The notes under the pieces are model-generated. The model saw nothing but the letters and a program-made list of their open reading frames with translations, was not told where the DNA came from and ran no database searches. DNA of 64,000 nucleotides from the NCBI GenBank assembly GCA_001004345.1, contig LCQW01000006.1:656-64655 (forward strand), in the 5' to 3' direction. This document shows positions 25,232 to 27,003 of the stretch, one piece after another (position 1 is the first letter of the stretch; every line of letters starts with the position of its first letter). Source of the stretch: Candidatus Kaiserbacteria bacterium GW2011_GWA2_52_12. Its GTDB lineage: Bacteria; Patescibacteriota; Minisyncoccia; Phycocordibacterales; UBA2100. Position numbers and translations under genes: made by a program.

Positions 25232-25461
25232 TAGCTGCGCCAATCGGCGGTTATTTGTTTGTGGGGAGCAAACTTGTTGTTGCTAGATGCGGGCCGTTAG
25301 AATCACTGCAATAGTTTTGACAATTTTTCCAATATTGTTTTTAGGGAATCGAGTAGTCGTTTGTGCGGCGGCAAAAAATGGAACGGAACAAAAAAGAAAG
25401 ACGGCGGAAAGCACTGTTATTTTTATTTTCCGAGAAAACATGCCAAAACTATAGCATAATT
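25232..25461. repeat. Left copy of a duplicated intergenic segment: part A at 25232-25353 and part B at 25413-25461, separated by a 59-bp copy-specific insert
   Basis: Near-identical to 26829-27003, with one SNP (gatgcGggcc versus gatgcAggcc) and a 4-bp gctg duplication in the right copy. Confidence 0.9.
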
Positions 25462-25477
25462 CACATGGTCATAAAAT

Positions 25478-26191
25478 TTATTTTAATACCGACTGGGAGT
25501 TCTTGAGCAGGAAGATGACCTCTTTTCGCAGGCGTGTTTTGGCCCAAGCTTTTTCCTTTTCATCCGGCAACAATTCAGCCAGTCCTCGTAAGATTTCGTT
25601 GTCTTTGACCGCTTCGACAACCGGAATACAATCAGCCATATATTCTTTAATGGTCTTGCCGGTTCGAGCTTTGATAACCTCGGCATTGATATCCCAGTGG
25701 TTTGTGCCAAAGAACCAGACATCGTAAATATCGCGCATGGCTGTTTCGCTCCTTGTGGTCAGGGCCGCGAGTTTGCTGGCAAAGAGATAATCTTTCTTAC
25801 CGACAAGCATGGAGATACCAAGGTATTCTTTCACTTCGTAGTGCTCTTTGACATCTGGTATCAGGATTCTCACATTCACTTCGACTTTCACATTGTGATC
25901 TGCGTCGCCATAGGAGAGCAGGAAAAAAATAGTATTTCGTTTTATATAGTCATCTTTAACCTCTCCGTATTTTCCAAGCATGCTTCTGATTTTTTCATGC
26001 ACCAACTTTTGAGTAGCTTCATCGGTAGAGAAGAGATCAAGGTCCAGATCAACAGAGAATCTAGTCAGACCATAGAAAAAGTACGCGCAGGTGCCGCCTT
26101 TGAATCCAATAAGAGACGAGATGGAAGTATCGGAATAAATGTCCCGAAGAATTTGTCCCATTATCAATTGATGTTTTTCTTTATTGAGCAT
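25478..26191 (-). CDS. abiEii: AbiEii/AbiGii-family nucleotidyltransferase toxin (DUF1814; type IV toxin-antitoxin)
   Basis: FKGGTCAYFFYGL...DLDLDL nucleotidyltransferase-fold motifs. It lies in an AT-rich island and overlaps the upstream antitoxin gene by 11 nt. Confidence 0.65.
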   Translation of the reverse strand: MLNKEKHQLIMGQILRDIYSDTSISSLIGFKGGTCAYFFYGLTRFSVDLDLDLFSTDEATQKLVHEKIRSMLGKYGEVKDDYIKRNTIFFLLSYGDADHNVKVEVNVRILIPDVKEHYEVKEYLGISMLVGKKDYLFASKLAALTTRSETAMRDIYDVWFFGTNHWDINAEVIKARTGKTIKEYMADCIPVVEAVKDNEILRGLAELLPDEKEKAWAKTRLRKEVIFLLKNSQSVLK

Positions 26192-26756
26192 GTTTTTGGT
26201 ATTTAGTTACTCGTTTGATCAATTGCTTATTATCGTATATTTTTGCTAACTCAAAGCACTGCTCCCAGTTAATGGACCGGAGGTTGTCAAAATAAAACTT
26301 AGGGAATAGATACACGATATCGAGGAATGCTCGCTCCGGTGTGGCGATACTGTAATTCTTTTCATTTTTAATCCCGAGTGCATTGTAAAGGACACTACCT
26401 TTCAATTTTCTAAAGGTAATTGTTTTATCGCCAATTTTTTTTGTTGTGGGATAGGGACCCGCTACAAAGATTGAATCATAGTGCTGGAAAATAATACCGG
26501 CTTCTCTTAGAACCGTCTCAAAACTTATGTAAGAAGGAGTATAAATACTTGTTGCGAGTTCCTTAATGTCGTATTCCTTACTCTTTGCAAAAACGCCTCT
26601 AGTCAGGCGGATCAGCGATCCCTCCTTTGCATAGTATTTAATCTTTGATGTCAGGTTGACTGGGTTAGTTTCTTCCCAAATCAAAGCAATATCCTTGGTA
26701 GTGAGAATCGTCTTTGGTGATTGGTATAATTTGGCTATAAGGTTATCTGTTGCCAT
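26181..26756 (-). CDS. abiEi: AbiEi-family antitoxin / transcriptional regulator
   Basis: 191-aa protein encoded immediately upstream of, and overlapping, the abiEii-like gene. Same AT-rich composition. Confidence 0.55.
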   Translation of the reverse strand: MATDNLIAKLYQSPKTILTTKDIALIWEETNPVNLTSKIKYYAKEGSLIRLTRGVFAKSKEYDIKELATSIYTPSYISFETVLREAGIIFQHYDSIFVAGPYPTTKKIGDKTITFRKLKGSVLYNALGIKNEKNYSIATPERAFLDIVYLFPKFYFDNLRSINWEQCFELAKIYDNKQLIKRVTKYQKHAQ

Positions 26757-26773
26757 ATATCAATATGTTTAAT

Positions 26774-26827
26774 GGAAAGGTGGTATTTCCACCTTTCCAT
26801 TGTATATTATTGACAAAAGTAAGTCAA
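26774..26827 (-). promoter_or_regulatory. AbiE cassette promoter/operator: GGAAAGGTGG-tattt-CCACCTTTCC perfect inverted repeat (26774-26798), with -10 TACAAT (rc, 26799-26804) and -35 TTGACT (rc, 26822-26827)
   Basis: 10-bp perfect inverted repeat between the -10 box and the abiEi start codon, with 17-bp promoter spacing. Confidence 0.5.
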
Positions 26828-26828
26828 A

Positions 26829-27003
26829 TAGCTGGCTGCGCCAATCGGCGGTTATTTGTTTGTGGGGAGCAAACTTGTTGTTGCTAGATGCAGGCCGTTA
26901 GAATCACTGCAATAGTTTTGACAATTTTTCCAATATTGTTTTTAGGGAATCGAGACTGTTATTTTTATTTTCCGAGAAAACATGCCAAAACTATAGCATA
27001 ATT
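26829..27003. repeat. Right copy of the duplicated intergenic segment (parts A and B contiguous)
   Basis: See the left copy; about 171 shared bp. Confidence 0.9.

Follow-up and report, generated by a model that had tools for sequence, protein, structure and literature searches.

An AbiE toxin–antitoxin cassette between two copies of an intergenic spacer in a glycan-biosynthesis island of a Candidatus Kaiserbacteria bacterium

The 64-kb stretch of contig LCQW01000006.1 analysed here (referred to as the window) is entirely a glycan-biosynthesis island, encoding NeuB, a cytidylyltransferase, many GT1, GT2 and GT4 glycosyltransferases, PMT_2, epimerases/dehydratases, DegT, AT3-SGNH and an ABC exporter. 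Exact matches to the window proteins come from two Rifle aquifer bacteria, Candidatus Kaiserbacteria bacterium GW2011_GWC2_52_8b and GWA2_52_12. Inside this island, between a GT4 glycosyltransferase gene and a carbamoyltransferase gene, an AbiE (abortive infection, Abi) toxin–antitoxin cassette was found, and 172 bp of the spacer separating the two genes is now present on both sides of this 1,367-bp insert. Read along the minus strand, the order is GT4 gene, 44-nt spacer, repeat copy B, insert, repeat copy A, 57-nt spacer and carbamoyltransferase gene. The features are listed below by window coordinates (SNP, single-nucleotide polymorphism; ORF, open reading frame).

23521–25170, minus strand: carbamoyltransferase gene, the downstream neighbour; a promoter-like TTGACT-17-GATAAT at 25194–25222 lies outside the repeat
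25228–25461: repeat copy A, towards the carbamoyltransferase gene, 234 bp with the 59-bp insert counted in; G at the SNP in the window (plus strand), polymorphic among contigs
25354–25412: 59-bp segment specific to copy A; it opens a 52-aa ORF at 25283–25441, minus strand
25462–26828, minus strand: inserted AbiE cassette, 1,367 bp, GC content 0.40
25462–25477, minus strand: 16-nt tail past the abiEii stop (ATTTTATGACCATGTG)
25478–26191, minus strand: abiEii, predicted DUF1814 nucleotidyltransferase toxin gene, 237 aa, with a GG...DLDLD motif
26181–26756, minus strand: abiEi, predicted antitoxin/repressor gene, 191 aa, PADLOC AbiEi match at 1.6e-56
26771–26801: palindrome AATGGAAAGGTG-N7-CACCTTTCCATT, candidate AbiEi operator, overlapping the -10 element
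26799–26827, minus strand: sigma-70-like cassette promoter, TTGACT, 17-nt spacer, TACAAT, 10/12 matches, with the -35 at the very edge of the insert
26829–27003: repeat copy B on the GT4 side, 175 bp, without the 59-bp insert; the SNP is A (plus strand) and the GCTG duplication is present
27048–28193, minus strand: GT4 glycosyltransferase gene, the upstream neighbour; the 44-nt spacer at 27004–27047 holds TCTATCCAC at 27008–27016

The antitoxin gene stands first in the bicistronic operon and overlaps abiEii by 11 nt. AbiEii was matched by Pfam PF08843 (6.7e-17; 62.7 bits with a cut-off of 22.5) and by PADLOC (1.4e-66, profile positions 2–224 of 231), and its KGGT...DLDLD motif aligned with PDB 4o8s, the best PDB match for the toxin being at 3e-6. 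For AbiEi, the PADLOC match spanned profile positions 2–182 of 186, Pfam AbiEi_3 and AbiEi_4 gave 14 bits, under the cut-off, and NCBIfam TAA_AbiEi gave 34.6 bits with a cut-off of 150; the search of PDB returned no solved relative of AbiEi. Relatives of this protein are annotated by their source as ‘transcriptional regulator of viral defense system’. The GC content is 0.37–0.45 across the insert compared with 0.50–0.58 in the flanking genes. AbiEi autorepression has been reported for characterised systems (PMC3985639, PMC7319586), and the promoter palindrome would fit such a mode of control. The pair may be expected to show toxicity, its neutralisation and phage defence.

The alignment of the two repeat copies showed 98% identity over 123 nt between 25231–25353 and 26832–26954, with a single SNP at 25293/26894, and 100% identity over 49 nt between 25413–25461 and 26955–27003. 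The repeat unit is 172–175 bp long and its copies differ by this SNP, by the 59-bp insert of copy A and by a 4-bp GCTG duplication at the cassette-proximal end of copy B. Two long sub-patterns of the unit occurred exactly twice each in the 64-kb window, with 0 occurrences expected (100 shuffles), and neither the unit nor the 59-mer had a further copy when the window and 90+ related loci were compared by low-stringency BLAST. A 32-mer scan of a metagenome collection, one that lacks the contigs of this locus, gave no match. A 22-mer scan of the unit against the GTDB species representatives returned a single 23-nt match, judged to be due to chance, and within this scope the idea of a dispersed repeat was rejected. 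This match lies in a Treponema metagenome-assembled genome (CAZALL010000059.1, L018 5057–5086), just upstream of a gene start, and corresponds to the promoter-like end of the unit, CATGCCAAAACTATAGCATAATT, exactly over 23 nt and at 28/30 positions when extended; as about 0.07 matches are expected by chance for a 22-mer, it was taken as chance or promoter convergence.

Within the unit lies an imperfect inverted repeat of 23 nt. A structured RNA and an attC-like motif were both searched for in the unit and neither was found: the Rfam search of 25000–27200 gave sub-threshold chance matches, and RNA and DNA folds of the unit were no better than those of shuffled sequences (z = -1.2 and -1.65). The 59-bp segment turns a 12-codon ORF into the 52-aa ORF with a signal-peptide-like start, MFSRKIKITVLSAVFLFCSVPFFAAAQ, and an extended -10 sequence, TGCTATAGT, is located 6 nt upstream of it. 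This ORF was rejected as a gene, its sole convincing match among 1.8 billion representatives being itself and two sub-threshold matches looking spurious.

To follow the structure beyond the window, contigs of the same locus were gathered by exact look-up of five flanking and cassette proteins. Some 30 contigs were obtained, representing many samples and the output of several assemblers. The two-copy structure was spanned in at least 14 independent contigs, including one from NCBI GCA_001004525.1; given the variety of samples and assemblers, the duplication is not an assembly artefact of the window. Throughout the spanning contigs copy B was identical, and copy A always carried the 59-bp insert and always lacked the 4-bp duplication. 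The SNP of copy A had the window state in 10 contigs and the copy-B state in four, a polymorphism that would be the expected outcome of gene conversion between the copies.

An empty site was found in contig L002 (JGI 3300009285 Ga0103680_10004635). It comprises the GT4 gene, 44 nt, one unit, 61 nt and the carbamoyltransferase gene, with flanks 100% identical to the window, and its single unit has no 59-bp insert, carries the copy-A SNP and lacks the 4-bp duplication. L002 also departs from all other contigs at a second site, around window position 21933, and so probably represents a separate genotype. At this second site the empty-site contig (L153 1–245) has unrelated AT-rich sequence in place of the 5' part of a sugar C-methyltransferase gene (20875–22242), which reflects the exchange of a module between alleles or else a chimera at the end of the contig.

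The earlier note on this DNA, made from the letters alone, had described the duplication with its SNP, 4-bp duplication and 59-bp insert, had read the enclosed genes as an AbiE pair with its own promoter and had placed both in a glycan locus. All of this was borne out by the aligned copies, by the PADLOC and Pfam matches together with the promoter and by the gene content of the island. Its further proposal, that the duplicated unit is the native spacer between the GT4 and carbamoyltransferase genes, agrees with the single-unit L002 contig, the only one of its kind, and its remark holds that a transposase would leave a far shorter footprint than this duplication.

A permuted junction, in which the cassette end is followed by a copy-B-type unit and by the cassette start, was detected in two contigs from different samples and assemblers, L012 (MEGAHIT k141) and L016 (ANAN16). 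Since the longest exact stretch common to both copies is 62 bp, an assembly graph with k = 141 could not make this junction. L012 and L016 share two private synonymous SNPs in third codon positions of abiEii (25622 and 25616), which are absent from the 16 other cassette-bearing contigs covering those positions; these SNPs point to a heritable sub-lineage and favour a tandem array.

A different type of exchange was noticed in contig L027 (ERZ27254732 k141_681468). Positions 1–1700 of this contig are a mosaic. Its upstream flank and the cassette's 5' part resemble L054/L056, one of the other genomic contexts of the cassette; the window type is seen in the cassette's 3' part, in copy A and in the carbamoyltransferase gene, after which comes a second short patch of the L056 type. 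An assembler chimera was rejected as its explanation, the parental switch intervals being 18–35 nt at k = 141. The contig looks like the product of real recombination or gene conversion between AbiE cassettes of about 80% identity, possibly with rearrangement between two loci.

The distribution of the cassette was then analysed in other genomes. A total of 3,815 AbiEi homologues was obtained (E < 1e-10), the best 120 being 85–99% identical and coming from Uhrbacteria, Parcubacteria and other Patescibacteria, a group in which AbiE has already been noted (PMC8080830, PMC13059738). Of 93 cassette loci fetched, 62 had a complete cassette and sufficient flanks, and they were grouped into 36 distinct genomic contexts, the window included. 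The cassettes of the 35 other contexts have 75–86% DNA identity to that of the window. In all contexts the homology begins no more than 19 nt from the -35 element and stops at or just past the abiEii stop (within about 22 nt of the cassette 3' end), and the cassette's GC content stays at 0.38–0.41 compared with 0.43–0.51 in the flanks. The palindrome was present with at most two arm mismatches in 29 of the 36 contexts, whereas the adjacent spacer varies; one context (L126 2481–2580) has an insertion of about 40 nt between the promoter/operator and the abiEi start. The cassette is a foreign, discrete promoter-to-stop module that circulates among Patescibacteria and is frequent in very small groundwater bacteria.

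The sites occupied by the cassette vary, as it was found between T4SS-pilin and bAvd-like genes, beside ABC transporters and within a prophage- or integrative-conjugative-element-like element. These varied contexts indicate no special tie to glycan loci, and the link to a surface-glycan (phage-receptor) locus drawn in the earlier note looks incidental. In L042 1–8579 (also in L050, L051, L057 and L118) the cassette lies inside a conserved element that also encodes ParB, RadC, a D12 methyltransferase, a serine recombinase and an HTH-S24 repressor. The element is likely a Patescibacteria prophage or integrative element and the probable source of chromosomal copies. The first 12 nt or so past the window abiEii stop match the abiEii–radC junction of the element-borne cassettes, a match that points to an element of this kind as the likely ancestor of the chromosomal copies. 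A phage or plasmid origin was rejected after searches of IMG/VR (protein) and of INPHARED phages and PLSDB plasmids (DNA) returned no matches to the cassette.

Whether duplications recur around the cassette was evaluated by comparing 500 nt on either side of each cassette and counting same-strand repeats of at least 44 bits. Flanking direct repeats were detected in five of the 36 contexts and in none of 164 pseudo-cassette placements in the same loci (Fisher p = 1.5e-4; 8e-4 with the window omitted), the control maxima being 30 bits for the opposite strand and 32 bits for the pseudo-cassette placements. The five contexts are as follows.

Window: flanking repeat of 175 bp
L054/L056: flanking repeat of 75–85 bp, 98% identical
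L087/L089: flanking repeat of about 99 bp, about 85% identical
L053: flanking repeat of 29 bp
Uhrbacteria context (L036–L041, L071, L072): flanking repeat of 26 bp

All five repeats have different sequences, and their distances to the conserved cassette differ slightly. In two cases the end of a convergent neighbour gene, 14 to about 33 codons long, forms part of the repeat. For the Uhrbacteria context an empty site was identified in a related species (GCA_016187515.1, L129), where the syntenic gap between the pilin and bAvd genes is 146 nt long and contains one diverged copy of the 26-bp repeat. With a single copy at this empty site, the flanking repeats are best understood as target DNA duplicated at insertion. 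No tandem cassettes were found in the other contexts.

Two further observations concern the surroundings of these cassettes. In 10 of the 36 contexts a DnaA-box-like 8-mer, TTATCCAC, was located upstream of the cassette -35 at a distance of 17–18 nt, and in four it was found up to 100 nt downstream of the cassette, about 11 times the local background; it was also present beside the insertion point in the cassette-free relative L129. The window cassette has no TTATCCAC, and TCTATCCAC is placed 6 nt upstream of repeat copy B. Beside the Uhrbacteria cassette (L036 vs L037, ~6780–7800) a DsbA-like gene encodes 286 aa in some contigs, and in others 240 aa followed by a 97-aa GIY-YIG ORF; a putative homing endonuclease is thus polymorphic here, being present in one form and absent from the other.

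Taken together, these data make it probable, though well short of certain, that the AbiE module entered the GT4–carbamoyltransferase spacer by the process known as insertion with long target duplication, with no recombinase involved, and that host recombination between the repeats followed. The composition of the cassette and its presence in many unrelated contexts speak for insertion, and not deletion, as the direction of the change. In the proposed course of events, incoming linear DNA would be attached to the target at two positions separated by 172 bp, through illegitimate recombination that accompanies a break or replication. Joining at two positions would leave the intervening stretch copied twice, and the joining enzymes would be those of the host. 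The repeats would then serve as substrates for host homologous (RecA-type) recombination, which could lead to gene conversion between the copies (the polymorphic copy-A SNP), to tandem amplification or a 1,542-bp circle (the permuted junction) and to precise loss of the cassette (the empty site), while toxin–antitoxin addiction would favour its retention. As native upstream sequence is kept before both abiE and the carbamoyltransferase gene, the insertion should be non-disruptive.

Several points weigh against this interpretation. At this locus the empty site is represented by one contig only among those returned by the five-protein look-ups, and the marker pattern of L002 would equally arise if an assembler had passed out of copy B into copy A within a 60-bp identical stretch. 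The permuted junction, for which a tandem array is favoured, may also come from a 1,542-bp circle, and the contigs alone fit both. The count of two unit copies applies to the 64-kb window. Finally, 31 of the 36 contexts have no flanking repeat, which means either that long target duplication is not the sole route of spread or that the repeats decay.

An alternative that we regard as unlikely, and that would still run in the population, is a two-step cycle of the Campbell type, in which the cassette first settled beside the unit without duplication, was released by imprecise excision as a circle of cassette and unit, and then entered the unit of a cassette-free sibling by a single RecA crossover. 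The permuted junction fits the 1,542-bp circle that such a cycle would produce, 175 bp is ample homology for RecA, every recurrent repeat is at least 26 bp long, and the markers of the two copies fit a crossover between the 59-bp insert and the SNP. However, the intermediate it calls for (unit, cassette and carbamoyltransferase gene without the second unit) was seen in none of more than 20 contigs, and the private SNPs of the junction contigs fit a heritable tandem lineage better than sporadic circles. Three rare steps would also be needed, and the repeats elsewhere are as short as 26–29 bp.

A bolder version of the long-target-duplication interpretation would make the AbiE cassette a recombinase-free selfish element, which enters with a long target duplication, is amplified through the repeats, is released as circles of about 1.5 kb or as linear copies and re-enters sibling or foreign cells by transformation, a life cycle that for restriction-modification genes exists as a hypothesis; this is considered improbable. 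If it were true, the duplication step, AbiEii not being a DNA nuclease, would be either a general host pathway open to any small addiction or defence module, or one promoted somehow by the AbiE proteins.

It is very improbable that tandem or dispersed copies of the unit existed beforehand, that the cassette landed between them by chance and that the empty contig is an assembly collapse. The single empty-site contig and its marker pattern, compatible with an assembler jump, would allow such a history, but the cassette lies exactly at the unit–unit boundary, the unit occurs nowhere else in the 64 kb and flanking repeats are enriched around the cassette relative to controls. Moreover, the second context has an independent single-copy empty site in another genome, and the empty contig, differing at a second locus, looks like a real genotype.

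The least credible explanation is that the cassette is site-specific, either resembling those of integrons or depending on a tyrosine, serine or Xer recombinase acting in trans, and that its attC or att site is the 175-bp unit. Recombination of attC x attC gives a single site in the empty state, two in the filled state and one on the circle, the unit does hold the inverted repeat mentioned above, and promoter-bearing toxin–antitoxin cassettes are typical of chromosomal integrons, but no integrase, transposase, resolvase, other recombinase or phage gene was found among the approximately 49 ORFs tested across the 64-kb window, the unit is not carried with the cassette (the 35 other contexts have different repeats or none), it lacks a GTTRRRY/RYYYAAC core and folds no better than shuffles, and the markers place exchanges at varying points of the unit and not at one fixed crossover. 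An integron gene cassette was rejected, there being no tyrosine recombinase among these ORFs of the window, no attC core in the unit and no unit in the 35 other contexts; so were an integrase-mediated integrative element, as the insert codes for abiEi and abiEii only and the flanking repeats vary in sequence and length between contexts, and a DNA transposon or insertion sequence, with no transposase, no inverted repeat linking the cassette ends and duplications varying from 26 to 175 bp. The earlier note had suggested homologous or site-specific recombination at an intergenic hotspot. Site-specific recombination is made unlikely by the lack of a recombinase among the ORFs tested, by the differing or absent repeats elsewhere and by the lack of an attC-like motif, homologous recombination is retained for events after insertion, where it would account for the variants, and nothing was seen that would mark the spacer as a hotspot.

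Other parts of the island deserve a short description. The left part of the window (514–11740) encodes a NeuB/cytidylyltransferase pathway of the nonulosonic-acid type together with an MbnB/TglH-like enzyme, two aminoglycoside-N-acetyltransferase-like proteins, a DUF4910/DUF2172 protein and an AMP-binding enzyme, a sugar-modification set that is unusually rich for a small-genome bacterium. The gap between the PMT_2 and GT2 genes is about 159 nt in the window (31039–31197) and about 295 nt in L001 and L002 (2861–3155) from the same population, which makes it another short segment of the island that varies.

Insertion with long target duplication, the process favoured here, is known from work on gene complexes for restriction-modification (Nobusato et al. 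2000, Gene 259:99; Furuta, Abe & Kobayashi 2010, PMC2853133). In that class the target duplications are long and variable, no other mobile element is involved, there is a bias towards naturally competent species and the repeats permit amplification; as a hypothesis, its authors put forward that insertion, amplification and release form a cycle (PMC2853133). Of the signs by which Furuta et al. (2010) recognise such insertions, three are seen at the AbiE locus; for the fourth, a repeat that is not a high-copy element of the genome, the data cover the 64-kb window, with two copies, and the GTDB species representatives, with the chance 23-nt match. Direct repeats of 172–175 bp, above their limit of 30 bp, surround an insert below 20 kb that contains both genes and the promoter; in the empty site (L002, a single contig, with L129 as a second context) the repeat aligns once and both flanks match; and no mobility gene was found in or next to the insert among the ~49 ORFs tested across the window. 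As in the restriction-modification complexes, a small selfish or addictive gene set without a mobility gene is bounded by long direct repeats of the target that align once with the empty site, some of the repeats take in a neighbour gene's 3' end, and amplification through them can occur. Their length is 30 to about 420 bp in the restriction-modification class and 26–175 bp for the AbiE cassette. The AbiE cargo differs in being a type IV toxin–antitoxin/Abi pair, the hosts are Patescibacteria and one and the same cassette shows the signature repeatedly. The authors of PMC2853133 proposed that element-encoded double-strand breakage drives insertion, whereas AbiEii, as a nucleotidyltransferase, does not belong to the DNA nucleases; the repeated signature of a non-nuclease toxin–antitoxin pair argues that the process is independent of DNA cleavage encoded by the element. 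In the literature searched, no report of this signature for a toxin–antitoxin system was found.

Amplification of a unit flanked by long direct repeats was described by Sadykov et al. (2003), considered here as cited in PMC2853133. To that extent the permuted junction is similar, being expected from unequal crossing-over between direct repeats, and it differs in that the AbiE junction is known only as assembly junctions in two metagenomes. Toxin–antitoxin cassettes of chromosomal integrons are likewise about 1.4 kb long, have their own promoter and near-identical bounding repeats of more than 100 bp and possibly a circular form; unlike them, the AbiE cassette shows no IntI, attI or attC signature, and its repeat is target DNA that is not carried along.

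With respect to the genes themselves, the AbiE promoter of Streptococcus agalactiae carries paired 23-bp repeats; unlike these, the window operator is one palindrome with 12-nt arms over the -10 element. The operon resembles AbiE of Lactococcus and S. agalactiae (Dy et al. 2014, PMC3985639) and the mycobacterial AbiE/MenAT systems (PMC7319586, PMC11375011) in its antitoxin-first bicistronic order, its DUF1814 toxin and its promoter inverted repeat. The window pair, known from sequence, is only distantly related to the characterised AbiE systems, as seen from the sub-threshold Pfam AbiEi match, the NCBIfam score of 34.6 vs 150 bits and the toxin PDB match at 3e-6.

The movement of small toxin–antitoxin and defence modules without a mobility gene is poorly understood; the signature was described 25 years ago for restriction-modification genes. 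The repeats let the AbiE module multiply or be lost without an enzyme of its own, and the locus shows that a defence gene can be added inside an operon with the downstream gene still joined to its own upstream sequence. As the cassette family is very abundant and near-identical across dozens of independent insertion sites in public metagenomes, it offers a natural data set for the dissection of junctions. Compared with the systems above, the AbiE cassette is not a new kind of element; it represents a known, little-studied mode of insertion, resolved here at population level, with a new toxin–antitoxin/Abi cargo, in Patescibacteria, a phylum of tiny genomes.

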